Both the position numbers and the translations under genes were made by a program. From Raillietiella orientalis (taxonomy: Eukaryota), in NCBI GenBank assembly GCA_036172245.1, contig JAYWIR010000151.1, forward strand, positions 1 through 61,229: 61,229 nt of DNA. Direction: 5' to 3'. Of the stretch, positions 2,686-57,400 are shown one piece after another. The notes under the pieces were generated by a model. It saw only the letters and a program-made list of their open reading frames with translations, had not been told where the DNA came from and searched no databases. Each line of letters opens with the position of its first letter. Position 1 is the stretch's first letter.

Positions 2686-2787
2686 CGGACACCGACTATG
2701 TGCACGCACAAATCACTCAAGAAAAAAAACCACTCGCCTTGCCACGCAGGCGGAGCGCAGGAAAAGCACGTCCTCTCTCCACAGCGG

Positions 2788-5769
2788 GGATTCGGCGATG
2801 GGCTGAGGAACGACCGGGCATACCACCACGCCCGTCTTTACTCTAGGACTCCCGACGTTCGACGCCTGGCGGAGTATAAAGCTGTGGCTGAGCGACAGAC
2901 CTGGCAATCCGGGTTGCCAGCTTGCTAGACACCCAAGGCCAGGAATGCTCAGCTCCGGCGAAAATAAACCGCATCCTGCGGGACTATTACTCCTCCTTGT
3001 ACGCGCGTAGAACAACAAAGCGCGCCGTGGCGCAGCGCTTGCTTCCGCAATGCGCCCCCGCGCTACAGAAGGAGCAGACACATCAACTCGAGGAGCCCTT
3101 CTCGATGGCGGAAATCAGTTCCGCCATTGGAAAGCTCAGAAAGAGGAAAGCACCAGGGGAAGACGGTCTGCCCGCTGAGTTCTACCAAGGCTTTGTGGCG
3201 GAGCTGGCCTTCCTAGTGCATCGGCTTTGCATGCTGATCCGAGAACAAGGGGACGTCCCCAAATCGTTCCGGTCAGTTAGGGTACGTCTCCTGCCGAAAG
3301 CAGGAGACAATCGCAACGTAGGCAACTGGCGTCCCATCACAGTAGTGGATGCGGATGCGAAGTTGCTTGCCAAGCTTTCGGCTGAGCGACTGGGATGGGT
3401 GACGGAATCCGTGGTGAGTCCAGAGCAGACATCCGCTGTTCCCGGACGAAGCATGGAGGTCAACCTGTTCCTCGCCAGTACATGGTGGCATTTGCAACAA
3501 AGCGAAGACCAGGGAGGTCAAGAGAATCCTGGATTCTCCTCTGACCAGGGAGGGGACGCCCTTCATGGAAGAGCCCCGCCGGGTGCCCTTGCGGTCGCAG
3601 TCGATCTGCGTAAAGCGTTTTATTCCTTCGACCAGGAACTGCTTCTGGATCTCCAGGAACGCTTGGGATTCCCGGCCGTCTTCCGGGCTTACCTGCGCTC
3701 CTGCTGGCGCTTCGCTCTAATAAACATCTCCTTTAGCGGCCGGCACGTGTACGGCGTGCCGGTTCGGCGTGGCAGAAGGCAGGGTGACAGTCTGAGCCCC
3801 TTGCTCTTCAGCATCTACTTCGAGCTGGTGCTGAGGGCATACAGGGAGACTCTGCAACCCTGTCAAGCTCGTGTCCCGGCACGCCTGCCGTGTCGGCCTG
3901 CGCCGACGACCTTCTGCTCCTGCACCCCGGGTCCATTACGGGGTCGGCGCTCGAAGATTTCTTTGAGTTGCTGCGCCGCGGGACGGGCCTCGAGGTGAAC
4001 AGAGAGAAATCTTCCATCGTTCCAACATCACCACAACTTTTCAACCATACGGCGTGGGCCGGACGGCCGAACTGGATCCGCTTGAGTATCCTTACGGGCA
4101 GGTGCTTCAAGTACCTTGGCGTTCGGTTGGGGGATTTCTGCGTTGCAGAAGCCTGGTCCGACCGTCTCCAAAAGGTGGAGTTGGCGATCAACCCGTTCCG
4201 GAACGGCAAGTTTTACTTGCAGGAGCGGGCCGCGGTGTGGAAAGCGTTCGCGGCCCCCCTCCTTCGCCCCTTACTTTTTGTTTGCCCCGCCCCTCCCATC
4301 ATACAGAGTCGGACCAAAGCCCTCTTGAGGACTGCCCTTTGGGGCACAGCGAGGTCGCGAGTCCAATTGAAAGACTTGTGCGCTCAACGCAGGGATGGTC
4401 ACTTGGGCCTCCTTACGTTGGAGCGCATCCAACTACAGACAACACTTCGGAAGTTAGCCCTTGCGGCTAGCTTATGGATCATGCCATTGTGCGATTCGGC
4501 ACGGCTCCTCGCCAGAAGAGCGACCGGCTGCGAAGGATTGTCCTCGATCCTCGTGACCTACCAGCGCAGCCTCTCCAACTTTGAGTCCGATTTGCGCCAG
4601 ATGGTCGCCCTGATGAGGGAGAATACCTGGATCTCCTGCCTCCCCGCGAACTGCATTGCCTGGCTTCAGAGTCAGCTTCCGCGTGGGCTAAGATCAACGG
4701 CAGGAGCGGGGCGGAATACAACTTCCTACGACGAGGACCGTACGCTCGACAGCCGCTGCAGGAGATTATCAACACGCCCCGGAAGTTTCTGTTGGCTCCT
4801 TTCAGCCCCCTTGCCCCCGTTCTGTCCTCCCTAAAAAACATTAGGAGCAGCAACGAGCGGGCATCGTGGGAAGTGTCCTGCCTTGTCCGAGGCAAAAAAA
4901 AACCTTTAAAAACGTAGGCGACTTGGGAGCTCACGGACGTTGCCACCCCGAGCGTCCCTCCTCACGGACATGCGCGCTGGTGAGAGCTGTTTGCAATACC
5001 TCCGGAGGAGGTGAAGTGGCCCCCAGCGTGTTGGGATTGTTGCACACTTCCCTTGAAGTGGCAGGAGACGGCGTTGCTATTGCTGCACTGAGGACTGTTG
5101 AGCAGAGCACGCCTGTCTCACTGGACACTGGAGAATGTGAATGCCCTCTGTGTCGAGTGCGGAGGAAGAGAAACCTTCCCGCATCTCACCCTCGAGTGTG
5201 TCGCCCTGGATGGACTCTGGAGTCGAATCGCCCCAATCCTCCATCTTCCAGTAGGCGACCCTAAAGAAATTTACCGTCGCCTCTTTCTGCGTGACGTCCT
5301 GCGCCCCGCTGCGTCCCTTGCAGTCCTCTGCTGCGTGCGCGGCATTGTGCAAAAATGGCACGCCAGAAGAAGAGGCCGAAGATGCAGGGACGCCATCCAC
5401 TGAACGAGGATCTCTGTAGAGGCGGCGACAAGGTGGCGTCTACCTTTCACAATAAAAACCGGACTTGAGTGTATCCTAAACAGGATGCGGAGGACCGACC
5501 CAGGCGCCCAGTGATACCTTCCCTGCCCCCCCTCCTCTCCCCATATAACTGTTTCCCTCCCCGTTATCTCTCGTTTTGTTTGTGTTTGTTCAAGTTTTCC
5601 CTTTCCATGCGCCTCAGGAATGGACCTAACCGGTCTATGCACCGGCAACCGACACGTCGAGCAAGGTGGGTGAACCCAGTGTTTCCCCACAGAAAACATC
5701 TTTTTAAAGGCTCTATTATCTAATTTTTGTAAAAAATTAGAATAATAAATGCCCCGGCATATCCGGATG
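2788..5769 (+). mobile_element. Non-LTR retrotransposon family D copy D1, 3' half (decayed ORF2 RT and zinc finger, 3' UTR)
   Basis: KAPGEDGLP, WRPIT, RQGDSLSP, CADD, KYLG and CVECGGRETFPHLTLEC across frameshifted ORFs 2922-3998, 3890-4834 and 5098-5403; ends in AATAAA-TGCCCCGGCATATCCGGATG (5744-5769). Confidence 0.9.
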
Positions 5770-8700
5770 ACAAACTTCGGCTGCAGCTAAGCATTCCGGG
5801 CCAGCGTCATCGAGCAGACAAGCCGCTGCAGATTGTCAAACCTGGCGCTCGGCCCTGGCGTTGTATTCCGCCAGACGCCGGACGTCCGGGCATCGGGAGA
5901 AGGTACGCGCCTGCAGATAGGATCTGCTGTTCGCGACACCCTCCCCGAAGCCGCGAGGAAGCAGGTGCAAGGGGAACCGGCAGCAGAACTAGAGGACCGA
6001 TCTTTTCAGATCGTCCCAGTCCTGAAGTTCAGGGATGGCAAAGCCCCGGAAGTGTTGGCGAAGATGCTCTGCCGCCTCCGAATTGTTCAGCCTGTCGGTC
6101 GGCAACCTCCAGACATTCATCGGAGGCCCTTTGCCAGGCGGAAGTAGCTCGAACTCCAGTGTAGGATGATCGGAAATCGCGGACAGCAGGCGCCCTTTCC
6201 GACCTACTCGTGAGAGCAGGTGTTCATCGAGGAACGCATGCTCCGGCGATCTCTCCATCCCGGGCTCACCAGCAAGCAAGTTTTGCACGCGCACGCACGC
6301 CCATACCTCGCTCACCAGTTGCTTCTCCCTCAAGCGGCATCTCTCCTCTGTTAGCAGGTTGACGTTGAAGTCTCCTGCAAGGAGGTGCGCCACGTTAGGG
6401 ACGGAGTCAGCGAGCCAGCGGCTGCGCAGGCCACCCAGGAATGCAAGTCGCTGGGCGTATTGCCAGCCGCCGCTCGGCGCGTAGGTGTTCGTAACGACCA
6501 GGTCGATCGATTCGGACCACTTAAGGACAAAATGGCCCACACGACCTTCCTCGTCGAAACAAACGTTTCGCACCGCCTATGCCACCCTGCCTCGGACGAG
6601 GAACGCGACTCGGCACGTTTGCGCGGAGCCTTGCCGCCAGTGTAGCGTCCCGTCCGCGCGCTCTTCGATATTCGAAGCCTGCCGTTCGGAGATGCTATGT
6701 ATCTTCTGCAGCAGCACCAGATCGAACGCGCGCAAAGAGTTGGCTACCGTCCGCCTTTTGTCAGCATCACGTAGCCCGTTGACATTCCAACAGGTCACGC
6801 TGACGCGACCAGCGGACGCGAGTCCACTCATCACTGCTGCGCACATGACGGCGTGCTCCTCGCCCCGTCCGGCGAGAAGTAAGCTGGTAGGAGAGCGGAT
6901 TGGGAAGCGGAAGCGCTCCCGTTCGCCGCCACATCGCGCCCAGCTGAGTTCTGGGAGCCGAGGATCATCGCCTTGGTTTCCATGCAGGAGCCGGAACTGC
7001 CTCCAGCAGCAGGCTCGTGCATTCGCACTTTAGTCCGGCGCGCTACCAGCTGACCCCGGGATGCGCGCTCCATTTGTTTGCACTCGGACTCCACCTCGGA
7101 GTCCGAGTGCCTGGTGCGAGACTGGCATTTTGCCAGTCTCTTTTTGTTTCGGCAGGTGGAGGCTTGCCCTGCCCACGCGGGGGTCGTCGCAGTCGCCAAC
7201 GCAGCTTCCGGAGCTTTGGCTTTTGCAGCCGCCCTCTCGCGCGAAGCGACGGAGACAGAGAACGCCGCCGTAGTGCGTACCTGGGTACGCACCTTCTTTG
7301 GCGTGCTTCTCTCTTTCCTCCCACCCACCTTAAAGATGAGGAATATTGAAGGGTCAACCTTCTTCTTCCCCTTTGTGGGCGTCCTGGAGACGCTAGTCCA
7401 TCCCGCGTAGGGGACGCCCTCGTAAAAGGCCGACGCCTCCCTCAATTGTTTGGCAGGAGATTCCGGCTCACCTTTCGCGCTCGCGGCGGGAGACGGCTCC
7501 GTCCCCGTTACGCACGGCACCTGCTCCTTAGCCGATGCGGGCGGAACGGCGGGCATTGCCGTCATCCCGCGAGGCTCTATTGCAGCCTTCGTTGCTCGCG
7601 CCTTCGGCGTGGAAGACGTGATGTCCACCGCCGTAGGAGCAGACTGCCGTTCAGAGGCAGTTCCGAGGGTACCCGCACACCGTTTCCCGTGTGCTCCGCT
7701 GGACGCGCAAGCGGACACGGACGGTTCAGTAGCCTTGATTGAGTGCGTGCACACACTCTTAGGCCGCTTCGAATGGAGCGATTTGCACCCAGGGTGACGT
7801 GGCATCTTTCCCATCTGCGCGGCTGTCTGAAATGATGGCTTCCCTGAAGCAACCGCGCCCTTTTTCGCGAGACCGCCACTCCGCGATGCCCCGCCCTTTG
7901 CGCCCGATTTCTCCCGTGGCACAACGGGGGAACTTTTGGGCGCGGACGTTGTCAAATGTTGGCGGTTTTTTGCCTGCCGCTTTCTTTTCAGCTCGGCGCA
8001 CTCTTTGATGGAGTGACCGAGCTGTTTACAATAGCGGCAGTTGAGTGAAGAGCAGGTCCACAGACGGTGGCCCTCTGCACCGCAAATGCCGCAAGCCGGT
8101 CGCTGGCAAGGCAAATTTAAGGTTTACGATCGCATCGCCCACCTGCAAGTGCGGAGGCATTTGCCTCCTATCCGACATGGTGACACGCGGCATGGCAAGT
8201 TCGCTGTGGAGAGATGCAATCCTTTTGATCGGATTGTCTGCTCTCCACAGCGCGTGCACTGAGTCGAATGCACTAAGTGCAGCGACGAGCACGCGATCGG
8301 GCGTGTTCACCTGGACGGCGGACAATCGGACCCCGAACGACTAATCCATAACCGACGGGACGACTTCCTTCCCGCGGATATTTAGCGAAGTTCGGAGAAG
8401 ACGCTGGACTATAGATGCCTCTTTGCAGTGCACCTCCCTGTGTCCGAGCGCGTTTACCGGCATGACGGCCAGGGGGTCGTCCTGTCGGACCCCGACGCGC
8501 AAAAGCTCATCCCATACATTTTCTCCGACCCCGTCGGAGATCGCAGCACTCACCGGATAGCAGAGCGCAGGCTTGTAGCCATGGGCTGCATATGCCTGCA
8601 GCTCTGCTTCGTCGGACGGTGCTCCGTTGGCTGCCGCCGCCTTGACGACGGCGGCGAAGCATCTCGACGGTGGCGAGACACAAGAATCAGAGGCGGACCG

Positions 8701-8854: not shown

Positions 8855-9050
8855 GTGCACCGTTGTCGTCGAGCGTATTCCCGACCGCTGCGCAAAAGAA
8901 CTCGCCGCTACCGACGACAACCCCGCTGTTGACTCGGTCAACAGCGAGGGGATCGAGCCGGCGGCGGCGTCCGTCATCGACAGCACCATCGATGAGTTAG
9001 CCTTCGCGCGAGCCGCGGAGGAGCTGGCAGCCTCGTTGCAGCCAGAACCC
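8855..9050 (+). mobile_element. Diverged family C ORF1 fragment (C4)
   Basis: Aligns by eye to about 36863-37070 (CTVVVER...ARAAEELAASLQPEPS). Confidence 0.8.
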
Positions 9051-9920
9051 TCCGCGGTTAGTAGGAGGACGTGTTTTTCCTTCACTCCCCAAAGAGTAGT
9101 AGGAAAGCGCTTTTTCTTCTGTGTGGTGTTTTGTGTACATCGTCGGTGTCCAATGGCCACGACGCCAGAGGACACCGCGATGGAGGTGGGAGTGGGGGAG
9201 GCTAGTTCGCCCCCACAGCCTACTGGAGCAGGGGCAGCCGCCCCGGAATCATCCCCGGCCACGCCGAGGACATGGAGCGCCATGGTGGCCGCGCCCAGCG
9301 CAGAAGCCATGGCGGAGATGGCCGCATACAAGGCCTCCGGGTACAAGCCATCGCTTGTCTACCAGGTAGGCAACTTGTTCGACGGCCGGACAGCGCGCGC
9401 CTTCAGCAAAGCGTTGAAGGACGCGAATGTTAATGAGAAGGATCTGGACGGCCTCTCCGTCCTCAGCGGCGGGCAGCGGGTCGAGGTGGTCTGCAAAGAT
9501 GTCACCTTGGCTCACCGCCTAATCCATGCGCCGCTGAACGTAGCCGGCCGCAAGATCCTGCCAGTATCAATGGACCGCTCCGTGGTGGTCCACATGACTG
9601 GCATCACCAGCCGCATGACGCGGTCAGCGGTTGGTGAGGAATTAAGAAAGTACGCTGAGGTGCACGCACTGTAGCCGAAACCCTACATTTTCGACGGCTT
9701 CGATAGCCTTTTTGGTGTGCAGGCTGCAGCGCGGGTCACCGTAAGGGAGAATTGTGGGCTTCCTCACGAACTACGGGTGGCGAAAGAAAACGTCGACCTG
9801 TGGTATGTAGGGAAGCCCCGGTATTGCGGGCATTGTGATACCGTGGGACACCTAGGTAAAAGGTGTCCCAATATACAATGCCATTTGTGCGGGGAGGGGG
9901 CCACGTTCGGCGCGTGCGGG

Positions 9921-12900: not shown

Positions 12901-13131
12901 CCGAGCGGGCTTTCACTAAGCGCAGGGATTGAAGCCATCGGTTGCATACGCGCGATAGTTTCCGTCCGCCAGGCGTTGGTAATCAACGGACAGCACCAAG
13001 AGGTAATCAGCAAACCATCCTTCTACATGGGAGCATCTGCTAGATGGCCTCATTTGACAGAGGAGACAAAAAGGAATCTCGCCGCAATACACCGCCGGTT
13101 TGCACACCCTCAGCAGCGGCCAACCCGGTGA
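9921..13131 (+). pseudogene. B1 ORF2: truncated endonuclease, frameshift near 10470, then uninterrupted RT and zinc finger
   Basis: ORF 10216-13131 has WRPITL, DLHKAFD, RQGDSLSP, YADD, KYLG, GLG and CVLCGSTEWIPHLLLDC. Confidence 0.9.
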
Positions 13132-13443
13132 TCATTGCCCTACCCTCCATAAACTAATTTTGTATTTTGTTTTTACACCCGCGTCCCCATAGGCTCCGGA
13201 ACATTTGAGGTGCTCATCCTTTAAATCCCCGTGAGTACGGAGCCTAACCAAAAACCCTTCACCCTTCCCTCCAGTTTTTGATTTTTGTTTGTTTCCCCTC
13301 ATTCCCCCACGCTGCGAGCGGTTTGTTTACCAGGCCTGCGTGCCGGTAATTTTTCTATGTTCTCTGTAGTTCTGTTGGTTGAGGACATTGTGCCTGACCA
13401 GTTTATTATTATTAATAAACGCTCCGGCGTGACCGGTTGATAA
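9921..13443 (+). mobile_element. Family B copy B1 (5'-deleted) nested in A2
   Basis: Colinear with B2 21481-25003; terminal AATAAA and hairpin at 13414-13440. Confidence 0.9.
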
Positions 13444-16400
13444 ATTTCAATCTCCGCCTGCTAACAGGTGAGCCGGACAAAAAAGTGAACGCGATGAACG
13501 AGTTGTGCGCCGCCATGCGTGCGCGCAACTACTTCGCGGGTGAGAGGGGAATGGTCCGCAGCATCGACCACGTCTTCCTCGACGCTGACCTGTGTTCACG
13601 GGTCGGCAAACGAAGGAGGGATGCGTCAACGTTGTCGGACCATTCCCGGTTAATTTTAGAGATGCGGCCTCGCAACAAAGGACCGCCATTCAGGGATTGG
13701 CGTCTGCCGGGGGACTGGGCGCGACTCTTAGGTGCGAAGGAACACCTTCGCGAATACCTGAGAGGGGTCACGCTCCGGAATCTCTATGACTGGGACCTTT
13801 TTAAGCAATCGGTCCGGGATTTCTGCGAGCAGTTCCCACTGGACCGCCTGCCCTCCGGATTCGGCGAGGGTCCTCGCAACCATCGCGCCTATTTACAGGC
13901 CCGTAGGTAAGAGCGAACCCCTAATGTCCGTCGCCTGGCCGAGTACCGCGTTGGGGCCTAACGCCAAGCCTGGCAATCCGGGTCGACCAGCTTGCTGGAC
14001 GACCAGGGCCAAAAATTATCGTCCCCAGCGTCAGTACGGCATCTCGTGCGAAGTGATTATCCCTCCCTTTACGCCAGGGCGCCCCCGGATCAAGATGCCT
14101 CTCGGCTCTTGCTTCCGGATGGTGTCGCGGCAATAGGGGAGGAGGAGACGTTAAGCCTCGATGAGCCTTTTACCAACGGCGAAATTCTCGCTGGTATCAA
14201 AAGGCTCAAGAGGCGGAAAGCTCCAGGGGAAGACGGCTTGCCCGCGGAGTTCTATCGGAACTTCGCGGAAGAGCTGGCACCCCTGCTGCTTCAGCTGACA
14301 AGGCTGATCCGAGACGAAGGCGAAGTTCCCTCCTCGTTTCGGTCAGCCAGAGTGAGGCTCCTTCCGAAAGGGGGAGACCTTAGGAATTTGAACAGCTGGC
14401 GTCCGATCAAGATTGTGAATACAGACGCCAAGTTTGTTGCCGGTCTATGGGCTTCGCGTCTGGGGCAGGTGGCAGAATCCATAATTAGCCCGGAGCAGAC
14501 ATATGCTGTTCTTGGGCGAAGTATGGATGCCAACCTCTTCTTCGCGAGCACATGGATGCACGCGCAGAGGTGTCAAAAGGAAGGGAAAGAAAAAATCGGC
14601 AACCCCACTTTGGGGCCGCCAGCAGGGCAGGGAATGGAATCCCGGGCGCGGAAGGAAGCCTTAGCGCTCGCAGTCGATCTTCATAGGGCGTTCGACTGTG
14701 TTGACCAGGGGCTTTTGTTTGAGCTCCTGGGTCGCATGGGCTTCCCACCCTCCTTGGTTACCTACCTGCGCTCTTGCTGGCGGAATGCGATTATCTCCAT
14801 CTCTTCCAGAAGTCAGAATTTGTATGGCGTGCCGGTGCGGTGAGGCATCAGGCAGGGAGATAGCCTCAGTCCCCTGCTCTTCAGCACCTACTTTGAGTTG
14901 GTGCTGAGAGCCTACAGGGTGACTTTTGCCTTCTTGCCGAGCTCGTGTCCCGGCACGCCCGCCGTAGCAACCCATGCCGACGACCTTCTGCTCCTGTTAC
15001 CTATGTCCACCCCGGCGAAGGCGGTCGGAGACTTCTTCGATCTGCTCAGCCGTGGGACCGGACTGCAGGTCAACAGGGCGAAGTCGTCGGTGGTGCCAGT
15101 AAGTGCGCCGTGGGCAGGGCAGCAGAACTGGGTCCGTCTAGGGATCCCCACGGCAAGGTGCCTCAAGTACCTTGGTGTGCCGTTGGGTGACGACTCCCCT
15201 GCGGAAGCGTGGTCCAGCTGTCTTCAAAAAGTTGAGACGGCGATCGGCCCGTTCTTGGAAGTCAACTTTCACTTGCCGGAACGGGCCGCGGTTTGGAACG
15301 CCTTCGCGGATCCCATTCTCCGCTTCTTGCTTTTTGTTTGCCCCGCCCCCAGAGAATGCAAAAGAGGACAAAGGACCTCCTCCGCATAGCCCTTTGGGGC
15401 AAGGGGAAGCCCGAGTCCCTCTGAAGGACTTGTGCGCTCCGCGTCGGGACGGCGGCCTTGGCCTCCTGATGCTGGAGCGCGTGGAAATCCAGATGCGGTG
15501 GCGAACTCTCGCCATCGCAGCGAAGATGTCGAGCACCCCTTCGTGCGTTCCGGCCCGCCTCCTCGCCAGGCGTGTGTCCCGATGCGAAGGACTCGCGTCG
15601 TTTCTTCTGTGCCCTGGCCGGAAGTTCCGAACATGCGGCCTTATGCTCAGACGCATAGCAATCCTGGCGAAGACGAACGGTTGGATGGTTTGTGGCCCCG
15701 CCAACTGCTGTCACATGAGCTAAGCAGAACCGGAGGAGTGAAAACAATATGAACTGCCTGCGAATCAACCCATACGCCAACCGCACCATGCGGGAAATAC
15801 TGGAATTTCCCCGGAGTCGCAGGTGGGCGTTGACGATCCCCCTTGTTACGGCTATGCCCTACCTCCTGAGGGCGCTTCAGGATCGCCAGAAGCCGAGGTG
15901 GCAAGTCACCTGCCAGATCGCAGGCAGGGAGAAGATGTTAAGCGGCTGGACCACAGGAAAACTGGCGGACGCCACGACCCCGAGCGTCCAGCCGCGTGGA
16001 CTAATGAGATGGGGCGAGCTGCTCGCCATCCCTACGGATGTGCTGAAGTGGCCCCCGGTATTAAAGGAATCCAGGATCCTGCCATTTAAGTGGCAAGAGT
16101 CGGCGTTGCTTTTGTTGCACTGGGGTCTACACTGCAACGCGCGCCGCTTCCACTGGACGAGGGGAGCTGTGGATCCTGCGTGTGCCAGGTGCGGGGAGCG
16201 GGAGTCGCTTCCCCACCTTATTGTGGATTGTGCTGCCATCCGACCCCTCTGCGAACGGTTCGGGGCGACCCTAGGTGTCCCTACGGGCAGCACCCCCAGA
16301 GACGTTCTTCGGCCCCTCTTCGTGAAGGACGCACTGCAGCCAGCCGCAGCCATCGCAGCCTTGTGCTGTGTCCGTGGCATCGTGGCGGCATGGAGCGACG

Positions 16401-16790
16401 CCAATAACGAAGGAGTGGGTCCACACGCGAGGGATGTCGTCCCATACGCCCAACGCTTCATGCGGAGAGCTGCCGGATGGCCCCAACTGGGGAATATACG
16501 GACGGACCTCAAGGGCTTCCTTCAACGGATGGGCCCTCCTCACAGCGTTCAGTGATCCCTTCCCTGCCCTCCAACTTCTTTTTGTCTGTTTATGTTTTTT
16601 ATTTTTCTTTTTGTTTTATCCCCATCCCCCTTCGCTGCTGAGGAACGCTACGCTGGGCTGCGTCCCGGCGTCCCGGCAGGTCCAGTGCATATGGCCGTGA
16701 GCGGGGCCTTGTACCGCGGATGTAGAGTTTTTTTTTTTAAAAATAAACGCCCCGGGCGTACCCGGGTGTAAACCTCCGCGGCCAGTTGGA

Positions 16791-16797
16791 GGACGTG
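16791..16797 (+). promoter_or_regulatory. Conserved 5' GGACGTG motif (DPE-like); also at 9067, 19103, 35690 (+) and 2773, 8854, 50724, 60048 (-)
   Basis: Present within about 16 nt of eight 5' junctions from five families whose UTRs are otherwise dissimilar; function is inferred. Confidence 0.6.
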
Positions 16798-16876
16798 TTT
16801 TTCCTTCACTCCCCAAAGAGTAGTAGGAAAGCGCTTTTTCTTCTGTGTGGTGTTTTGTGTACATCGTCGGTGTCCA

Positions 16877-18628: not shown

Positions 18629-19174
18629 CACCTGGGCTCGCCAGTCGCCGTCGGATTCGCGCGGCCTGTTGGAATGTCAACGGGCTGCGCGACGACGGTA
18701 ACAGGCGAGATACAGCCGACACCCTGCGGGAGTTGGACCTGGCTCTGTTGCAGGAGATCCTCGTGATTACCGCGGCAGACTTCCAGGAGATCGAGACGAT
18801 CGCGGGGGGTCGGCTGTAGTGGCAATGCGGCATCCGCAACACCTGCGTGGTCGCGTTCTTCGTGAAGCCGGCCATCGACGCTGCCGTGAAGGGCGTGCGC
18901 TTCGATGACGACGGTCGGGTCGGTCAGCTGACTCTCGGCTGGTCGGACTCGATCGATCTGATCGTCACGAATGTGTACGCCCCCACCGGTCAAAAGGGAT
19001 ACAGCAACCGTACCAGGCTGCTTGAATCCTTGAAGCGCGACTGGCTGGCGAACACGAGCGTGCGGAAGGCTCACCTGATAGCGGGAGATTTCAATCGAGT
19101 GCGGACGTGTTTTTCTTCGCTCTCGTCTCCGTGCTTTCATCCGCTTCATCTTGGCGTTGTACATTTTGACGACG

Positions 19175-24690: not shown

Positions 24691-24973
24691 TCATTGCCCT
24701 ACCCTCCATAAACTAAATTTGTATTTTCTTTTTACACCCGCGTCCCCATAGGCTCCGGAACATTTTAGGTGCTCATCGTATAAATCCCCGTGAGTACGGA
24801 GCCTAACCAAAAACCCGTTACCCTTCCCTCCAGGTTTTGATTTTTGTTTGTTTCCCCTCATTCCCCCCACGCTGCGAGCGGTTTGTTTACCAGGCCTGCG
24901 TGCCGGTAATTTTTCTATGTTCTCTGTCATTCTCTTGGTTGGGGACATTGTCCCTGACCAGTTTATTATTATT

Positions 24974-25000
24974 AATAAACGCCCCGGCGTGACCGGGTGA
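24974..25000 (+). other. Conserved 3'-terminal AATAAA plus CCGG-N5-7-CCGG hairpin (one of ten copies)
   Basis: Also at 5744, 13414, 16742, 28317, 41188, 53291 (+) and 29760, 33592, 54519 (-). Confidence 0.85.
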
Positions 25001-25003
25001 TCA

Positions 25004-28000: not shown

Positions 28001-28140
28001 TGGGTCAACACGCGAGGGATGTCATCCCAGATGCCCAACGCTTCTTGCGGAGAGCTGCTAGATGGCCCCAACTGGGGAATCTACGGATGGACCTCGAGGG
28101 CTTCCTTCAATGGATGGGCCCTCCTCTCAGCGAACAGTGA
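25004..28140 (+). pseudogene. A3 ORF2 remainder (end of endonuclease, RT, zinc finger; frameshifted)
   Basis: ORFs 24997-25353, 25292-27250 (DLHKAFD, RQGDSLSP, YADD) and 26995-28140 (CVRCGERESLSHLIVDC). Confidence 0.9.
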
Positions 28141-28343
28141 TCCCTTCCCTGCCCCCCAACCTCACTTGTTTGTTTGCCTTTTTGTTTTTATTTTTGTTTT
28201 TCCTATTCCCTTTCGCTGCCGGGGAGTGCCACGCCGGGCTGCGTCCCGGCGTCCCGGTAGGTCCCGTGCATAAGGCCGTGAGCGGGGCCTGGTACCGCAA
28301 TTGTGGAGTTTTTATAAATAAACGCCCCGGGCGTACCCGGGTG

Positions 28344-31300
28344 GCAACGCCGAAACCTGGAGGGAGACGGTTCAGGGGAAACTGGTCGCAGAACTCGCGG
28401 ACTGAGCTCTTCAAGTCGTCCCAGTCCGCGAGCGACTGCAGATGGAAGCCTTGCAGGAACAAGCGAAGATGTTGCGCTGCTCCTGCGATGCGCAACCAGT
28501 CCCCTGGCAAACTCCACGCTGTGGTGGGTGGACCTCTACCGTGCGGGTGTATTTCTAGCGCGAGCCGGGGATGGTTGCAAAGTTCGGATGGCACTGCTTC
28601 TCGATTTCCCACCCGCGAACACAGGTGGTTGTCGAGGAACATGTGGTCGATCCTCGTCCCCTTCCCGGCGTCACCGGCCAACAAGTTGCGCGCGTGCATG
28701 GCAGCGCACATCTTGTTGATCAGTTGTGCGCGAATGTTGGGCGCACCTGCCAGCAGGCGGACGTTAAAGTCCCCGGCAATGAGGTGCGCCTTTCGTATGT
28801 CTGCTTCGGCCAGCCAATCTCGCCGCATGCCTTCGAAGAACGGAGTGCGTTCCCCGCGCCTGTGGCTCGTGCCGGGCGCGTACACGTTGGTCACGACGAG
28901 GTCGATCGCGTCGGACCACTTGGCAACAAGCTGCCCGATTTGACCTTCCCCGTCGAAGTGCACGTCGCGCAGCGCATCAACGACGGCTGGCTTCAGCATG
29001 AAAGCCACACCGCGAGTGCGGTCTTTCTTGTTTTGGTATACGAGCCGCCCGCCTGCGATCCGTTCGATTTCCTGGGCCTCCCCTGCGTGGAGCACGTGCG
29101 TCTCCTGCAGAAGCGCCAGGTCGAAGTCCCGCAGGCTGGCGGCCACTTCTCTCCTCTTGCGGTCGTCGCGCAACCCGTTGACGTTCCAACAGATTACGCG
29201 CAGTCGCCGGCAGGAGGAGAGTCCACGCGTTGGTGTGTTTATTGTGCTTGCTTACCGTCCTCCGCCTGCTGTTCAGCAGGCGGGAGTTGTGTATCCATTG
29301 CGACGGGCTGTTGCTCGAAAGGAGGCGGTCCGTCGGTAATTGTGGTGGAGGTTGGAGGATCCTGCTTGGCCAGGGATTTCTCCGGCGAGGAGAAGCGAGA
29401 CCTTGCGGACATCGCCTCCCCGTCGTCGTGGTCCGACCGCATTTCCTCCTCCGCCGGTGGAGGTGCGGAGCGAAGCGGGTTGCCTACCTTGCGGCCCGCT
29501 TTGCGCTTCGGGAGAGCGACAGCCGGAGAGTTGCCGGCTTCGGCTTCGGACTAAGAAGTCTCCGGTCCTTTCGCCTCATACGGACGCCTCAAGGCCTTCT
29601 TCTGGGCCTTGGGAGGCTGCTGGAGCATGGCTGCCAACTCTTCCGCCGCCTTGTTGAAGTCCCGGTCGTCGCTGCTCACGCTGGGCTCGCGACTTTGTCG
29701 CGGCGTCGGCGTTCGCGCGGCGGCGGGTTGTTCACACCCGGATGTGCCGGGGCATTTATTTCATAGAAATAAAATTACAGAAAAATGTCGCGTGGCGAAC
29801 CCGAAGGTTCACCACTCCAAAACAGCTTGCTGGTTACCGGCTCCGTGCCGGAGAGGTCCTTCCGATGCGCGGGGATTAGAAATAAAGAAAAACAAAAAGA
29901 AACAAAAAGTTCAAATGTGGGGGGGAACAAATGTTGTAGGGGTGGGAGGGCGGGGAAGGGATCACGGTGCGCGTGGAGAGGTCCTCTAGATCCTATTCAG
30001 GATCCGCACAAGCTGAGTCCTTTCAGCGCCCAAGTGGCGCCACTTGCAGACACTGCGCGCGAAAAGGCGAGTCCAGTGTAAGGCGTTGCCGGTTGGCTGA
30101 CGCCTTCTTCTGGTGGCGTTCCAAGCTGCCACTATTCCTCTGATGCAGCCGAGGACTGCTACACTAGCGGGCGGGGACAAGGCGTCACTACAGAAGAGGC
30201 GCCTGAAAACGTCCTTTGGGCCGCATCCGCGCAAGTCCAGGATCGCCGCGAGACGATCCCATAAAGGGCGGATGGCACTGCACTCGATGAGAAGGTGGGA
30301 GAAGGTCTCTTTTTCCCCGCACCGGTCACAATAAGGATCCACAGCCCCCCGGGTTGTGTGATGAAGGCGTGCTTTGAATGGAAGTCCCCAGAAAACCACA
30401 AGCAACGCCACATCCTGCCATTTCAGGGGGAGGGATGCACTGTTCCAGGACGCTGGGGGCCACTTCATCTCCTCCGGAGATAGTCCGAGTAGCTCGCCCC
30501 AGCGTCGAATTCCGTTGGGCGGGACACTCGGCGTCGCAGCGTCAGCTAGCTGCCGAGATGTCCACGCCTTTATCGAGTGTGTCCTGCCGCCTATAGTGCA
30601 GGACACGGTCCATTTCCCCTGCTCGCTACTGTCCCTGGCATTCACAAGGAAGGGCAGCACTGGGGCGAGGGGGTTATCAAGGCCCACAGAAGCTTGTCGT
30701 GGGACTGCACGATCTCCTGCAGCGTCCAGCGGGCGTGCCTTTTCATACAAGTGTTCCTTGTGCCCGCCGGAACGTGGATCTTTACCCAGGTGGAGACTGA
30801 CTCGTGCACCCAGGCGGAGTAGTTCCCTGGGAGGCAGGAGATCCAGGCGTTCTCCCGAACCGCAACAAAGATGCGTCGCAGCATAGAGCCACAGTATGGT
30901 CTTCTGCAGACGCGCGCAGACAGAAACGACAAAAGTCCGCCGATTCCGCAGGCTTGTTGGGCCAGGAGGCGTGCTGGAACGCACCAAGGCGTGTCCCACA
31001 ATTCTGCCGCAAGGGCGAGAGTCCTGAATCGAAGTTGTATTTCGATGCGCTCCAGCGTAAGTAAGCCAAGTCTACCGTCATTACGTGGAGCGCACAAGTC
31101 TTTGAGCCTCACACGGGACCTCCCTTTGCCCCAAAGGACTGTCCTCAGGAGGCCCGCTGCTCGTTTCCGAATAAAATAAGGGGCGGGGCAAACAAAAAGT
31201 AGGGGGCGAAGGAGGGGAGTTGCGAACGCGTTCCACACCGCGGCCCGTTCCTGCAACTAGAACTTGCCTTCTTGGAACGGACCGATCGCCAACGCTGCCT

Positions 31301-37433: not shown

Positions 37434-37447
37434 TCTTCCCAGCAGTA

Positions 37448-41000: not shown

Positions 41001-43798
41001 TCCCTTCCCTTACCCTCCCAACTTTTCTTTTCTTTTTTGTTTTGTTTTTTGTTTTTCCCCCTTCCCCCTGCTGCCGTGGTGGACCGTACCGGTCTGCAAA
41101 CCGGTGACCCGGCAGGCTCTGTGTTTCTTCGTGCGTGGCTGGAGCAATGGTCCAGCCACCGCACGTCTTTGTAAAAGTTTATTTTACAATAAACGCCCCG
41201 GCGAAATCCGGGTGAAAATCGAATGCTTTGTGCAAATCTACTGCTAGTGCCAAGGCTCCCGGCCTTTCTCCCGTCCGTCCGCACTAGCGCACGCAGTCGG
41301 CAGAAGTTCTTGCTGCTGTTCGGCTATCCGCAGCAACGCGCTCTTAAAGCTGCCACCAGGTGCGCGCGTGAAGAAGGTTCGCATCCATGGATCTACCCGG
41401 TACAGGGTAAGACTGCTCTACGCTTACCACGGACTCCGCGACTTTCCCTAAGCGCGTGACTCACAGCTTTGAAAACACCTTGACGTCCGTATTCACTAAT
41501 GTGATCGGACGCCAGTTGTTGAGTTGGCGCAGATCTTCTCCTTTCGGGAGGAGACGCACCCTCGCTGAGCGGAAGGAAGAAGGGACATCGCCCGTCACCC
41601 TAATCAGCGTCGAGATTCTAAGCACTAGTGGGGCGAGTTCCGCCGCGAAGCTCTTATAGAACTCCGCGGGCAGTCCGTCCTTACCTGGCCTCTTCCTTCT
41701 CTTGAGTCCTGCGATGGCGCAAGAAACTTCCTCCAACGTGAAGGGCTCGTCGAGACGATCGCGTTCCTCCTCGCCGACGCCATGTGCAGTTCGCGGCAAA
41801 AGTAGTTCGAAGAGGACTCTTTCCGTCGGGGAATTAGCGTAGAGCAAGGAGAAGTGACGCTTTAGTGCTCGCCGCACTTCGGCAGGAGCCGTGCATTCCC
41901 GAACTTGGTCGTCGAGCAGAATAGCCGCTCCAGACTGCCAGCCCTGGCACTCGGCCCTCGCCTTGTACTCTGCGAATTGCCGGACTTCCGTAAGTCTCGA
42001 GAAGGTGCGCGCCTGCAGAAATGCTCTACTATTGGCCACGCCTTTCCCGGAGCCGCGTGGTAGCAGGTGCAGGGGGAACCGGTCGCAAAACTCACGAACC
42101 GATCGATCTTTTAAGATGGTCCCAGTCTGCTAGTTCCCGGATGGCAAAGCCGCGAAGGAACTGGGAAAGATGCTCCGCGGCTTCCTTATGACTCAGCCAA
42201 TCCTCCGGCATCCTCCAAACATTGTTTGGAGGTTCCTTGCCCGGTGGGAGTAGCTCGAACTCCAGCCTATCATGGTCCAATAACGTGGACGGCACCCTGT
42301 CTCTCCTTCCCACTCGTGAGAGTAGGTGTTCATCGAGGTAGAGGTGATCCACGCACCTTTCCAGTTCAGGCTCGCCGGCTTCCAAGTTACGCGCGTACAC
42401 CGAAGCGCATGCCTCTTCCACGCACGACCGTTACGCCGGAGACCTCGTCCCGTTGCAAAGCAGGTGGACGTTGTATTCCCCTGCGACGAGATGTGACACT
42501 CTGGCTCCGGAGTTCCTGAGGCATTGGCTCTCCAGCACATCAAAGAACTCGATTCTTTCGACACGCCGATGAAAGCCGCTCGGTGCGTAGACGTTCGTTA
42601 CGACGAGGTTGATTGAATCTGACCACTTGAGTACAAGTTGGCCCATTCGCCCTACATGGTCGAATCCAACGCTGCGCACCGCTCCCGCCATCCTACTATG
42701 TACGAGTAACCCGACTCCGTACGATTGTGCAGAACCTTCTCGCCAGTATAGGGTGCCACCCGCGCGCTGTTCGATTTCGGCAACCTTCGCATCGGAGATG
42801 TAATGCATCTCCTGAAAAATCGCCAAATCGAAATGTCGCAGGGTGTCTGACACGTCTCGCCTTTTTCCGTCCCTGGGCAGTCCATTGACGTTCCAACAGG
42901 CTACGCTGAATCGACGAAAAGAGGCGACTTCCTGCATTAAGGCTGGGAAGGTGAGCACAGATTTCTCGCCTTGTCCGGCGAGTGGTCACGAGACAGAGCG
43001 GTCGATCTCGGAGACTGGACATCTCCATTCGACGCCGCACTGCTTGTTGCCGTTAGCTCAGAGGTGAGGTCCTCTTGCTGCTCTTTGCTCCCCAGCAACA
43101 CTTCCTCCTCGGCAACCACGCGCTTGCGGGTCTTCGGGAGGCGATTGCGCGGTTTCGGGCGGTTGTCGCGCTGTTTGCTTTTTCTGTCGGAATCTAGATC
43201 AGAATCCGACAGTCGAAGGCTTGCCAGGCGCTGCTGCTGTTTCCCGGAATTAGGGAAATCGTTCGCAGCCTGTTTCCTAGCGCTTTCTGCAACTGCGGCT
43301 GGGACACTCGTCCTTTTAGCCACTGCAGCAGCCTCCCGCTCCATCCACGAGAGGACGACTGCGCAGTAAGAAAGAATTCGCAATCCTTTTCTGGGTAGGT
43401 TTCGCGGGTTTCTTTCGCTCACTACACCTTAACACAGAGCTGCGAAGACCTTGATGGTTTCTTTCTAATGAACCTTCTAACCTGCAGCCAGCCGTCTTCC
43501 TTCGCGTCGCAGTTATCTTTGCCATCCTGAGATGGCGCTGCTTCCAAGGATGTAAGAGGCGTTGCCTTGGCTGCCTCTTGGAGTGCTTCCTCCTCGCAGG
43601 CGTAAGCAACTCCTCTAGCGATCGCGAGAGCCTTGCGCACGGGCGGTATCGCCGCCGCTGAACGAAAGGGAGGCGTGATTATAGCTAGTTTAAAACTATA
43701 CCCAATACCCCGCCAAGGCAGTGTTTAAAACCACTGCCAAGCCAATTTTTGAGTGCCCTGAGAGAGCAAGTGTTTGAGTGAACGCCAGTGTGGAAAGA

Positions 43799-45685: not shown

Positions 45686-45698
45686 GTCTTCCCCTTTT

Positions 45699-52510: not shown

Positions 52511-53320
52511 GTTGCCGAAACGCGACTGATGTGCGGCTGGAGGACGTGCGAGGTAGCAGACGCTGCTACGATATGCCTTCGTGCCAAGGGACTTCTCTGG
52601 TGGAGTGAGCTCCTCGGGGTGCCCACCGATGAACTTGTGGTCCCTTTTGCGTGTTTCGACGAGACTCTCTTTCCCCTTCGGTGGAAGCAGAACGCTTTTC
52701 TGCTGGTGCATTAGGGTTTGTACTGCAACCAGCGGGAGCACCTGATTTCCGGGGTAGTTGCGTCCCCGAACTGTGCCAACTGCGAAGCGGTGGAATCGCT
52801 TTCGTATTTGCTGTTTGAGTGCGGTACCCTCCGGGAGCTGTGGCAGCGGCTGTCTTCAGCGCTCCTGCACTCTGGACACACCGCACTGGATTGGATGCGC
52901 CGCTTCTACACGCGTGGCGGACTTTCTCTTGAAGCGGTCGTCGCAATCATCTGCTGCGTCCGCGCCATTTTCAAGGCCCGCACGTATTGCAGATGCGAGC
53001 AGTCCCAACATCGGTCTCCGACACCGCAGCCTGCAACCTGCAAATGGCTGCCGGGTGCCCACATCTTTGAGCAGAAGTGAAGACGAAGATCGGCGGCATT
53101 CACCGCCGGTTCTGAGAATAGGAACGGTTAGACTGTATACCCCTGTCCCCGCACTTCCACCCAATTTATTTATTTATTGTGCCCCCCTCTACCGTTTCTA
53201 ACTCTCACTGTGCCCGCACTGCGTTCCGGGAAATCTACTCCCCATTTTCTGTTCCCCTTGCCTGGGAACACAGTTCCCAGTTGATATTATAATAAAACTC
53301 CCGGCGCAATCGGGTAATAA

Positions 53321-54473
53321 ACGACAACGCTTCATTCTTTTATCTGCTCGCTTGCCTGCTGTTTTTTCTGGCGGTATGCAAGCTTTTTCTCTAATCTCCT
53401 CTCCTTCTTTGATTTTTTCGCCGTTGCCAATTGCCACCCATTCTCCTGCCCGGCTCCCTCAACTTTTTCGGCGTTGGTCGCCGGGGTCTCGGATGCGGCC
53501 TGGAACTTGAGCGCGGGTAGCACAGCCTTCGCGGCAGCTTTCGCCGCCAGCCTTTTCTGCAGAAGCCGGGCGCGTTTTCTAAGGTTTCTCTTGAAAACCA
53601 CCCGCACTGCTGCTTTTGGGCACACCTCCCTCGTGTGACCCATTGTTCCGCATACTTGGCACTGCACGTTGGGGCACCTTTTTTTCAGGAGGCCCGACGG
53701 ATTGTAGAAGCCACAGTATTTCGGCTTCCCCACATACCAGAGGTCGACGGTTTCGCCTTCGACCATCAATTTGTGGGGAAGAGTGCAGCCCTCCCGAATG
53801 GTCACGCGCGCAGCCGTGAGGCCATGTTGCAGTCCCGTGTAGTCCTCGAAAGGACTAACTTTCGTCCATTGCGCGTGGACCGTTCGGTATTCCTCCAACG
53901 CGGCGCGATCCTGTTAGTTGCGCATCCGCGCGGTAACACCCAACAGGTGGACCACTATGCTGCGTTCCGCCGTAATAGGGAGGAGCCTGCGCATCCCCAT
54001 CACACCTGGGGTTTCAAGCGGTCGTTGCGCCAGCTCAGCATGTTTGCAGATGACCTCAACGTACTGATCCCCGCTGCGGATGGTCATAGCGCTGAGCTCC
54101 TCCTCTTTCACATCGAGAGCGCGCATGCCCTTCGAGAAGGCGCGCGCGCTCTCTAAAGAATAAAGGTTGCCTATCTTGTAGAACAATGAAGGGTTGCACA
54201 CCTCCTCTACATAGGCCGACAATTCCGATGCTGCTGAAGGCGATGGCTCCTACACAATGGCGCTTCACGCCCGCGCTGCATTGGCACTGATTCTGTAGGG
54301 GCGGATGCCCCCACCTCCATCGCCTCTGGGGGCGGCGTTGCCGCTGCCGCCTGGCCATCCCTGGTGGTCGCGTCAGGCATCACTGCCCAATCGACCACCG
54401 AACCACACGACGCTTGCACTGGGGGAGACTTCCTAGCACGAGGAGCCCCGAGAAAACTCTACCACCCTGGAGC
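53321..54473 (-). mobile_element. Family C copy C3, 5' UTR and ORF1 part, more diverged, in tandem with C2
   Basis: ORFs 53914-54222 and 53332-53898 are homologous to C1 ORF1; 5' end GCTCCAGGGTGG. Confidence 0.9.
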
Positions 54474-54488: not shown

Positions 54489-57400
54489 TTTTCACCCGGA
54501 TTTCGCCGGTGCGTTTATTATAAAACAAACATTTACAAAGACGTGCAGTGGCTGGACGATTGCTCCAGCCACGCACGAAGAAACACAGAGCCTGTCGGGT
54601 CATCTGCTCGCAGACCGGTACGGTCCACCACGGCAGCAGGATGAAAGGGAAAAACAAAAAACAAAACAAAAAAAGAAAAGAAAAGTTGGGAGGGTAAGGG
54701 AAAAGATCACAGTTGCTGGTAAGACCATTGCATCCTTTGCAGGATGCCGGCAAGCTCCTTCTGTATTCCTCGATCCTAGTAGAGCCATAGGGACGCCCTC
54801 CTCAGGAACTGGGAGGCTGGCTGGAAGGCACCCTGGTCGCGTTGACCTCCCGTTGCCTTCCTCCAATTGGTGACGATCCCGCGTAGGCAGCACAAAGCTG
54901 CTAACGAGGCCGCTGGCCGAAGTGCGTCAGCAACGGAGAGGGCTTTCAGTGCGTCCCTGGGGTTGCCGCAGGGGATTCCGTTGGCTGCGGCAAAGCGAAA
55001 CCCAAGGGGGCGAAGGGCAACTCAATCCACTAGCAGGTGGGGAAGGGACTCCCGTTCCCCACACCTGACGCAGTTGGGGTCCACCGCTCCCCAGGTCCAG
55101 TGGTGACGGCGGGCGTTGCAGTGGAGTACCCAGTGCTGCAACAGGAGAGCCGAATCCTGCCATTTTAAGGGCACGGTGGAAGTGTTCATGAGCACCGGGG
55201 GCCACTTGAGATGTTCAATGGGAACATCGGGCAGCGCGCCCCAGCGCAGAAGTCCATTGGGATGCGTACTCGGGGACGCAGCGTCTGTTAACTTACCTGT
55301 CTTCCACTCTCCTAACTCCTTCTCATTTCCGGAGAACTTAACTGAAACCTCCCACTTCGCCGCAACATCGCTGTCCAGATCTTCCAGCAATGAGGGTAGC
55401 GCAGCAGCGAGGGAGGTTCTTCCTGCCCACGCTGTCTTCTTTGGATCCTACAGGATATCGCGGAGCGTGCAACTTCTGTAACCACCAAACAGGAACCTTC
55501 GTTCCTGTTGAGAGCGTTGCATGACGAACTGTCCCCACGTACGAACGGTTTCCTGTTACCAGTCACTACCGTTAAATGGGCGACAGGTGAGCAATCCTGG
55601 GTTTTTCCGATACAGCGCAGCCACCCTCCGTAGCTGGAGTCCGCATCGGTTGACGCAGCGACGGAGTGCAAGAAGCGACGTCAGTCCCGTCTTGCCGGTG
55701 GCTTGCTGGAGAAGGAGACGTGCGGGGACGCACCAACAGGTGCACCACCACTCTGGAACGAGTGCCGACAATCGGAACTGGAGCTTAAGCTTCAGCCGCT
55801 CCAGCGTCAGCAAGCCCAGACCACCGTCCCGACGAGGAGTGCACAAGTCCTTTAAGCGGACTCGGGTCCTCCTGTTGCCGCAAAGGGCGATAAGGAGGAG
55901 GTCCTTTGTCTGCTTTTTAATTCTTCCTGTGGGTGGGCAAACAAAAAGCAGGGAACGGAGGAGAGGAGCCGCAAACGTGTTCCAAACCACGCCCCGTTCA
56001 GTCAGGAAAAACCTGCCGCCTCGGAACGGGCCGATCGCCGTCTCTACTTTTTGAAGGCAGCCGGACCACGCTTCCGCAGGGGAGTAGTCCCCCAACGGCA
56101 CACCAAGGTACTTGAAGTACCTCACCGTGGGGATCCCCAAACGGACCCAGTCCTGCTGCCCTGCCCACGCCGCACCAACTGGCATCACGGACGACTTCGC
56201 CCTGTTCACCGTAAGTCCGGTTCCCCGATGCAGCAGGTCGAAGAACTCCTCGACCGCCGCAGCCGGGGTGGACATAGGGAGCAGCAGCAGAAGGTCGTCC
56301 GCGTATGCTGAAACGGCCGGCGGACCGGCACAGTCGTGCGGCAGGTGCGCCAGAGTTCCCCTGTACGCTCTCAGTACCAACTCAAAGTAGGTACTGAAGA
56401 GCAAGGGGCTCAGGCTGTCTCCCTGCCGGATCCCACGCCGCACCGGCACGCCGTGCACGGTCTGCCCGCTGAAAGTAACATTGATAAGCGCGTCGCGCCA
56501 GCAGGAGCGCAGATAGGCCATTAATGAGGCCGGGAAGCCCAAGCGTTCCAGAAGCTCCAGAAGGAGATTCTGGTCGACGCATTCCAATGCTTTTCGCAAG
56601 TCGATTGCGACCGCAAGGGCTCCCTCCCTCCACCCGACCATCCGACCCCTTGCCAGAGCACGCACCGGAATTCCGGCTGCTCAATAAGCCCCTTCCTTGT
56701 TGGAGCTCTAACCATGTGGAAGCGTGGAACAGGTTCGCCTCCATGCTCCGCCCGGGAACAGCATAAGTCTGTTCCGGGCTGATGAAGATGTTGGCAACCC
56801 GTCCCAGACGCTCTGCCCACATCTTGGCTATCAACTTGGCGTCCGCATTCACTATTGTGATGGGACGCCAGTTGTTCATGCTCCTTAGGTCTCCTCCCTT
56901 CGGGAGGAGCCGCACCTTTGCTGAACGAAACGAGGTGGGAACGTCACCTGTTTCACGGATCAGCAAGGTGAGTTGCTGTACCAGGGGGGTAAGCTCAGCC
57001 GCGAAAGTTTGGTAAAACTCCGCGGGCAGGCCGTCCTCCCCTGGAGCCTTCCGCCTCTTGAGCTTTCCGATGGCCGAGAGGATCTCGTCCATCGTGAAAG
57101 GCTCGTCGAGGGTCTTGCTCTGCTCCTCCCCGATCGCTGGAGTGCCTTCCGGAAGCAGGAGTCGTGAGACGTTCCTCTCCGGAGGTGCCCTGGCATACAG
57201 GGAGGAGTAGTAACTCCGCAGCAGGCCGCGCATTTGGGCAGGTGCCGAGTGCTCCTGGCCCTGATCGTCCAGTAAGCTGGCCGATCCGGACTGCCAGGCT
57301 TGCCTCAAGGCTCCCGCTTTGTATTCCGCCAGCCTGCGGATGTCGGGGGTCCTGGCGTAACGACAGGCCTGCAGGTAGGCTCGTTCGTTACGGACCCCGG

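Follow-up and report, generated by a model that had tools for sequence, protein, structure and literature searches.

In the present study we analysed contig JAYWIR010000151.1 of Raillietiella orientalis (assembly GCA_036172245.1; positions 1 to 61,229, hereafter the window), whose GC content lies between 53 and 61% and nearly all of which is taken up by fragments of long interspersed nuclear elements (LINEs) encoding an AP-endonuclease and a reverse transcriptase (RT), mutually nested and on both strands. Exo_endo_phos and RVT_1 occurred together in four of the 20 open reading frames (ORFs) scanned and RVT_1 without Exo_endo_phos in eight further ones; the elements are non-LTR (lacking long terminal repeats) retrotransposons of the apurinic endonuclease (APE) type. 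All fragments but one form a single lineage, with a pairwise identity of approximately 45-70% between ORF2 segments, and its seven families are target-site-specific and sit inside one another. Our subject is the 3' end which these families have in common, a tail of 30-31 nt that combines AATAAA with a short CCGG hairpin and is followed by no poly(A). The outlier, with ORF2 at 45534-48614, shows approximately 28% identity to the main lineage, is a different LINE, and has no such tail.

Among solved structures, human L1 ORF2p was the best match to the ORF2 of the lineage (1e-41, as compared with 1e-12 for R2), a comparison that is weak for a clade call as most LINE clades have no solved structure. 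The nearest named proteins were those of rabbit L1 ORF2, at 22-26% identity, and one C-terminal ORF matched zf-RVT, the C-terminal cysteine-histidine motif of the L1 clade, at 25.7 bits, below the cut-off of 27.5 bits. The first two of these comparisons hint at an ORF2 that may be called "L1-like", with no finer clade placement.

The original prediction, made from the letters alone, held that ten 3' ends from seven families share this terminus, and the count stands. The strict pattern AATAAA-N0-8-CCGG-N3-10-CCGG was matched nine times in the window (at 5744, 13414, 16742, 24974, 28317 and 41188 on the + strand, and at 29760, 33592 and 54519 on the - strand) against 0.05 expected, a number reached by none of 100 shuffles; the tenth tail, at 53291 (+), is degenerate, and one of its stem pairs is a G.U. 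The + strand sequence of 5744-5769 is AATAAATGCCCCGGCATATCCGGATG, as had been described, with GGA in place of the consensus GGG. A covariance model of the ten tails, run with filters off, returned exactly ten hits (E 1e-8 to 5e-7) and none other up to E=10, and since these hits are the model's own training set, it is the absence of further hits in the window that is informative. All ten lineage copies for which the window includes the ORF2 C-terminus carry the tail, an eleventh copy running off the window end, and all ten tail-bearing copies are decayed and dead. At the gathering threshold, no Rfam family, the histone stem-loop included, matched any tail; the sole Rfam hit in the window was a U4 small nuclear RNA (snRNA).

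Read from its 5' side, the tail consists of AATAAA (invariant in all ten copies), YG, a stem of 5-6 bp (CCCGG/CCGGG; H3 below), a loop of 4-6 nt, and about six nt ending in A, these being TG (TT or TA in two families) and then some four bases of which the last one to four are A. All six loops listed in the original prediction are present (Table 1), and its statement that only a few bases precede the flank was borne out: the element DNA ends 24-25 nt past the hexamer, and homology to other LINE copies restarts at an offset of 29-34 nt from the first A of AATAAA in eight of the ten copies, the ends at 29760 and 33592, which have no adjacent homolog, not being fixed by the flank. Target-site duplications, worked out for two elements only, are 9 bp long for element 19097-25003 (ATTTCAATC, at 19088-19096 and 25004-25012) and 15 bp long for element 35680-41218 (TCGAAYGCYTTGTGC, at 35665-35679 and 41219-41233), and therefore fix the element ends to the base at 25003 and 41218. 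The absence of poly(A), a tail that is typical of the L1 clade without being universal in it, was likewise confirmed, as the longest A run at +20..+60 was 2-4 in all ten copies. Additionally, a contig from run X1, the sole public run with related DNA, joins a tail of the 33592 type, 3 bases past GGGTTT, to another host position (joint at 33566) and reads as one more copy without poly(A); the contigs of this run are short and diverged (378 placed, 44 of them at 99% identity or above), and this one joint is informative on ends. In the junctions read, the final bases of the tail showed no consistent microhomology with the target.

The fixed targets of the families lie in the genes of other LINEs: GDFN codons of the endonuclease in sense for element 19097-25003, HKAFD codons of the RT in antisense for element 35680-41218, and LPPGFG codons of the linker in antisense (28348-28370).

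As for independence, the 13414/24974 and 16742/28317 pairs belong to one 6.9-kb block that is present twice (90.7% identity), and the 41188/54519 pair to a 6.7-kb inverted duplicate (95.5% identity); the ten tails therefore represent seven independent families, the number originally given, and in the RT tree the copies fall into the same seven. In this tree CGAAAT groups with GCGTAC (support 93/96) and the two CGCAA families group with CGTGA (support 99/98), CATAT and CACAT being unresolved at the base, so that the loop sequences follow the descent of the RT. The duplicated blocks consist of already nested elements (9046-17641, 21481-28343, 34521-41230 and 54477-61217) and comprise a 7.7-kb tandem unit, another copy at 90.7% and, in inverted orientation, one at 95.5%; consequently, the nest also grows by segmental duplication.

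Across the seven families the tail is 0.78 identical over 31 nt. Compared at fixed offsets, five 31-nt windows of the upstream 3' untranslated region (UTR) and the 31 nt downstream reach 0.42-0.49, which is the shuffle level. To this extent the UTRs are unrelated between families, as had been claimed, but the claim does not extend to a stop-proximal block and two hairpins, H1 and H2, which are shared (see below). Decay after insertion is visible in individual copies (5744, 13414, 53291 and 54519), and the conservation therefore acted on active masters. One could argue that the tail has no function and that common descent, or conversion among neighbours in the nest, accounts for its being shared, given that duplicated blocks hold three of the five pairs of similar tails and that all copies sit within 61 kb. 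Such an account is scarcely credible: adjacent UTR and flank stand at the shuffle level next to a tail 78% identical, conversion tracts would not be expected to break off at an identical 31 nt throughout the families, and the decay seen in single copies implies that it was the active masters on which conservation acted. That the tail is a selected 3' signal is supported by these comparisons and is the strong part of our finding.

The tail is the last module of a shared 3' UTR of approximately 190-260 nt, in which the ORF2 stop with a C-rich block, a T-rich tract, H1, H2, an A/U-rich stretch (often with UGUA), AAUAAA, H3 and the terminal bases succeed one another. The stop-proximal block, GTGATCCCTTCCCTGCCC, gave six matches against 0.04 expected, and five of them, from four families, precede a same-strand tail by 180-233 nt. 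H1 is built around a CCGG core (best copy ACGCCGGG-CTGCGT-CCCGGCGT); its loop is CTGCGT in five families and starts 72-109 nt before AATAAA. The stem of H1 varies yet stays paired, the loop-closing pair being CG three times, GC and UA twice each, and AU and UG once each. Three of its eight pairs are compensatory, changes on both sides occurred in 10 cells against 4.4 in shuffles, and the covariation score was 0.368 against 0.145 +/- 0.045, a value which none of the 500 shuffles reached and below which slid controls stayed far (0.153 at most). The covariation of H1 is real. Hairpins with CCGG in both arms, which are rare in the window (0.022-0.027 per 60 nt of each strand), were found 86-114 nt upstream of AATAAA in four of the seven families. 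Between H1 and the A/T-rich stretch, six of the seven families carry H2, a stem of 8-14 bp; the hairpin which the 16742/28317 family has at this position is strong but of another kind, and no clear one was recognised at 33592. Finally, the 30 nt before AATAAA are A/T-rich (GC 0.10-0.43 vs 0.58 for the window), TGTA lies 16-21 nt upstream of AATAAA in five of the ten copies (0.065 expected per copy), and the last 150 nt fold with z at or below -2 in nine of them.

With this anatomy, its conservation, the exact junctions and the covariation of H1 in hand, we lean, if only somewhat, towards the view that the tail is the last module of the structured, stringent-type 3' UTR of L1-like, site-specific LINEs, in which AAUAAA would act as the poly(A) signal and the hairpin would fix the start of reverse transcription. 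AAUAAA is the canonical poly(A) signal of animals, and the RNA end lies 10-30 nt downstream of it. It could thus be the element's own RNA polymerase II poly(A) signal, the DNA end 24-25 nt further on falling at the expected cleavage distance, and an element landing inside the genes of other LINEs would need a 3'-end signal of its own. ORF2p would then bind the structured tail, as in a stringent-type LINE, with H3, fixed 6-7 nt from the end, positioning the enzyme, so that target-primed reverse transcription (TPRT) would start at the last templated bases and the poly(A) would not be copied. What prompts the proposal of template recognition and a fixed TPRT start is that the poly(A) is left uncopied and that all families end at one and the same point. 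The conserved stem would be common to the whole lineage, and the loops, H1 and H2 would diverge with the families. The original prediction had offered a shared signal for RT recognition or for 3' processing; the two are not alternatives, as the module probably does both.

Several observations weigh against this view, most of them concerning H3, whose existence as an RNA structure is not demonstrated and which we treat as a candidate, however well the selected tail around it is established (78% across families, ten of ten copies, exact 3' junction). The original prediction had named a lack of covariation as the outcome that would speak against it, and formally this is what H3 gave in the window: none of its seven pairs shows a compensatory change, three being invariant, two one-sided (C-G to U.G and G-C to G.U) and two deviating by unpaired cells only; the upstream H1 does covary. 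The stem pairs at 91.4%, which 279 of 500 shuffles matched because the columns hardly vary, and invariant pairs are uninformative on RNA structure either way. Isolated 31-mers form the hairpin in nine of ten cases (13414 is the exception), at z of only -0.5 to -1.7, no better than shuffles, and the minimum-energy fold of the 150-nt end keeps the local terminal hairpin in two of ten copies, the CCGG arms pairing elsewhere, often with H1. Furthermore, the H1 alignment was anchored by hand on the loops and has nine distinct rows from seven related families, and H1 is decayed in two copies (33592 and 54519). For H2 the alignment (MAFFT, RNAalifold) is too poor for its count of three compensatory pairs in eight to be used, the covariation term being -0.1. 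Control windows in ORF2 are also structured (mean z -1.46, 12 of 40 at or below -2), so that the UTR ends, at a mean z of -2.68 with eight of ten at or below -2 under the same script, show a modest excess. In the part of the human L1 ORF2p study drawn on here (PMC10830416), approximately 15 nt of single-stranded poly(A), with adenines read specifically, separate the hairpin from the active site; the 6-7 mixed bases of our tails, from which poly(A) is not copied, do not fit this distance, and mechanistic details must therefore differ. Every step past the anatomy, be it polyadenylation at the tail, RNA binding by ORF2p or the start point of the cDNA, is one that we infer. Two small points speak for the hairpin: left-arm substitutions fall at the two positions in which one C out of four has to bulge, and one family gained a complementary G...C at the loop ends, which gives a 6-bp stem.

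The distant pairing of the terminal arms in eight of the ten 150-nt folds, in several cases with H1, could be taken to mean that the functional fold joins the H1 region to the terminal one, by long-range pairing or a loop-loop contact, closing the 3' UTR into one domain read by the RT; all four arms are CCGG palindromes. For a contact between the H1 and H3 loops, a duplex of 5-6 bp is possible in four of the seven families, and the 5744 family and the CGCAA families differ by an apparent double compensatory change. Nevertheless, cognate loops pair no better than non-cognate ones overall (-4.4 vs -3.6 +/- 1.7 kcal/mol), three of the seven families (29760, 41188 and 24974) have no good duplex, and palindromic CCGG arms make predicted alternatives of this kind unavoidable, all of which renders the idea improbable. 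H1-H3 loop pairing was rejected as a general feature, as it is not general across families.

A simpler account would see in the tail a pure 3'-end formation signal, AAUAAA with a hairpin spacer making a compact poly(A) site for any flank; the RT would ignore the tail, and poly(A) would be missing because priming, for some other reason, takes place where body and poly(A) meet. The invariance of AATAAA, the element end 24-25 nt after it, the A/T-rich 30 nt upstream and the TGTA of half the copies all suit this account, and the one to four A at the end of every tail might be where a poly(A) begins. It leaves unexplained, however, why the cDNA would start at the same base in all families without specific positioning; moreover, the element cannot carry a downstream GU/U-rich element, a poly(A) site has no need of a covarying H1 70-110 nt upstream, and the stem sequence is conserved far more than a spacer requires. 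We hence consider it unlikely. A role at the DNA level, with the CCCGG...CCGGG palindrome marking where the next insertion lands or being bound by a host protein, is very unlikely indeed. It could draw on the identity of the palindrome on both strands and on two of the seven independent families, in which the tail is followed directly, head to tail, by the 5' end of another element (16770; 54488 on the - strand). At the latter junction, however, lies the family's usual target of 15-17 nt, which fits re-insertion into the duplicated target and explains the tandem without the tail; the remaining five families adjoin unrelated host codons, and AATAAA and the 6-nt end, both strand-specific, are equally conserved.

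Returning to a module that serves both processing and RT, one may picture it in a bolder form as a "cut here, start here" signal: AAUAAA would set the end of the RNA and the hairpin would be a ruler which starts the cDNA at the cleavage site and skips the poly(A), freeing an L1-clade enzyme from poly(A) dependence, while the stem would be a guild-wide shared currency open to cross-mobilisation, and H1, H2 and the loops (perhaps through an H1-H3 contact) would give family specificity. We offer this picture tentatively and think it unlikely to hold as a whole. Cross-mobilisation, which the original prediction had also raised, found no support in the window, where every tail follows its own ORF2 remnants and no loop is at odds with its RT clade, seven families being a weak test. 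Nor did the 61-kb window contain a short ORF-less element (short interspersed nuclear element, SINE) with the tail, all ten model hits following ORF2 remnants.

Template choice that depends on poly(A) and is "relaxed" has its textbook example in L1-type elements. Descriptions of L1-clade lineages in which the 3' signal is specific are few, and poly(A) tails are retained in them (PMC3472496). Ohshima (2012) reported stringent L1-clade lineages, namely monocot lineage 1a (LINE1-1_ZM with ZmSINE2/3) and L1-1_CR of Chlamydomonas, in which a conserved 3' hairpin is taken as the RT signal (PMC3472496). Our elements resemble these in their L1-like ORF2 and in a conserved end, the last 45-80 nt there, with the rest diverged (divergence 0.144 vs 0.570; here identity 0.78 vs about 0.45). 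They differ in that the stems of those lineages vary with compensatory changes and keep loop and flank conserved, whereas here the terminal stem is invariant, the loop variable and AAUAAA part of the module, with no 3' repeat and no SINE seen in the window. It is H1, with its variable stem and conserved loop, that resembles the hairpin of those lineages.

The tails of UnaL2 and ZfL2, by comparison, end in short repeats, and start by slippage has been studied there. As far as the portion of the work of Hayashi (2014) used here goes, the ORF2 of zebrafish ZfL2-1 and ZfL2-2 reads the 3' stem generally, through a conserved region, and the loop specifically, through a variable region (PMC4176376). 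A 3' stem-loop is thus common to both systems, and the division into a general stem and a specific loop is the pattern first proposed for the present tails. These stringent LINEs (eel UnaL2 and ZfL2) belong to the L2 clade, another clade than the L1-like elements here. R2 is not known to have an AAUAAA-defined end and uses a restriction-like endonuclease, in contrast to the APE of our elements. In the excerpts relied upon, R2 and Bombyx SART1 insert at specific sites, need a structure in the 3' UTR to choose their template and begin reverse transcription at a defined point (PMC7265360, PMC11194090), features that recall those seen or proposed here; the two are of the R1 and R2 clades, and SART1, in the citation given by PMC3472496, keeps and needs its poly(A). 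Human L1 ORF2p is the nearest solved relative of the lineage ORF2. In the sections of Thawani (2023) considered here, its C-terminal segment holds a hairpin of the template RNA upstream of the start and helps set the TPRT start, unpairing of the stem leading to heterogeneous start sites (PMC10830416). The 3' stem-loop of replication-dependent histone mRNAs is likewise a short GC stem-loop a few bases before a non-polyadenylated 3' end; it differs in having no AAUAAA, and its Rfam model, as noted, matched no tail. Formation of histone 3' ends depends on an element further downstream, which would be lost from a retrocopy.

In the literature searched we found no description of Tx1 3' ends, and the present tail was not found in print there. 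Among the proteins searched, P0001 (from a JGI metagenome contig of 2870 bp) was the sole close relative of the ORF2, with 69% identity over residues 365-975, the remaining matches having 27% identity at most. A metagenome scan with the tail pattern gave 25 loci, none with RT homology by tblastn, and these were rejected as relatives of the tail, being chance matches in bacterial sequence. A scan of genome contigs with the ORF2 alignment gave 105 candidate stretches, of which two encode RT, both distant fragments (25-33%) on short contigs of metagenome-assembled genomes with no tail to compare.

What is known, then, is the stringent-type class of mechanism; what appears to be new is a tail of L1-like elements that lacks poly(A) and includes an AAUAAA, in families that nest in one another. 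If this is true, an enzyme of L1 architecture is able to start in a fully tail-specific way, and the tail would provide a compact natural signal for starting RT, of approximately 30 nt, or approximately 130 nt with H1 and H2. Because seven mutually inserting families share the stem, the tail is also the natural starting point for asking whether the members of such a guild compete for enzymes or share them.

Table 1. Positions of the tails, upstream 3' UTR modules and related motifs in the window.
Feature	Positions	Strand	Basis or remark
Tail, loop CATAT	5744..5774	+	pattern and covariance model; right arm decayed to CCGGA; host homology restarts at offset 31
Tail, loop CACAT	29730..29760	-	pattern and covariance model; end not fixed by a flank homolog
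Tail, loop CGTGA	13414..13444	+	pattern and covariance model; decayed duplicate of 24974; U.U at one pair
Tail, loop CGTGA	24974..25003	+	covariance model; holds last base of full-length element 19097-25003
Tail, loop CGCAA	33562..33592	-	pattern and covariance model; X1 contig joint
Tail, loop CGCAA, degenerate	53291..53321	+	covariance model; ACT for CGC, G.U in stem
Tail, loop GCGTAC (or 6-bp stem, loop CGTA)	16742..16772	+	pattern and covariance model; 5' end of another element adjoins
Tail, loop GCGTAC	28317..28347	+	pattern and covariance model; adjoins antisense LPPGFG codons of host ORF2
Tail, loop CGAAAT	41188..41218	+	covariance model; end of element 35680-41218
Tail, loop CGAAAT, C to A at predicted bulge	54489..54519	-	covariance model; target-like 17-mer adjoins, then the 5' end of a related element
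Stop-proximal block, GTGATCCCTTCCCTGCCC	16552..16569	+	pattern count
Stop-proximal block, other copies	5511-5528, 28137-28154, 40997-41014	+	
Stop-proximal block, other copy	29948-29965	-	
Hairpin H1, best copy	28229..28254	+	
Hairpin H1, other copies	5625-5650, 13326-13351, 16648-16673, 24886-24911, 41084-41109, 53209-53234	+	
Hairpin H1, other copies	29832-29856, 33676-33701, 54598-54623	-	33676-33701, left arm decayed; 54598-54623, decayed
Hairpin H2, long stem	41134..41160	+	family-specific sequence
Hairpin H2, other copies	5665-5691, 13374-13402, 24934-24962, 53261-53281	+	
Hairpin H2, other copies	29791-29816, 54547-54573	-	
H1-loop/terminal-loop complementarity	5630-5645 with 5757-5762	+	4-5 bases, in four of seven families
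H1-loop/terminal-loop complementarity	33676-33701 with 33574-33579	-	4-5 bases, in four of seven families
GGACGTG(T/C)TTT(T)C motif	9060-9080, 16790-16805, 19103-19115, 35695-35710	+	approximate
GGACGTG(T/C)TTT(T)C motif	~2745-2760	-	approximate

At the opposite end of the elements, several tail-bearing families carry the motif GGACGTG(T/C)TTT(T)C 6-25 nt inside their 5' ends (Table 1), which may be an internal promoter or initiator element. Additionally, the U4 snRNA of the window is complete (43629-43766 on the + strand; Rfam RF00015, 78 bits, model positions 1-138 of 138) and sits approximately 200 nt upstream of ORF1 of the outlier LINE, which begins at 43964; the two together could be an snRNA-associated, target-specific LINE or a chimera. 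This outlier, present as a single copy whose end is not fixed, has an AATAAA of its own near the 3' end (49313-49350 on the + strand), followed by a different C/G hairpin-like stretch (CCCC TTTT GGG).

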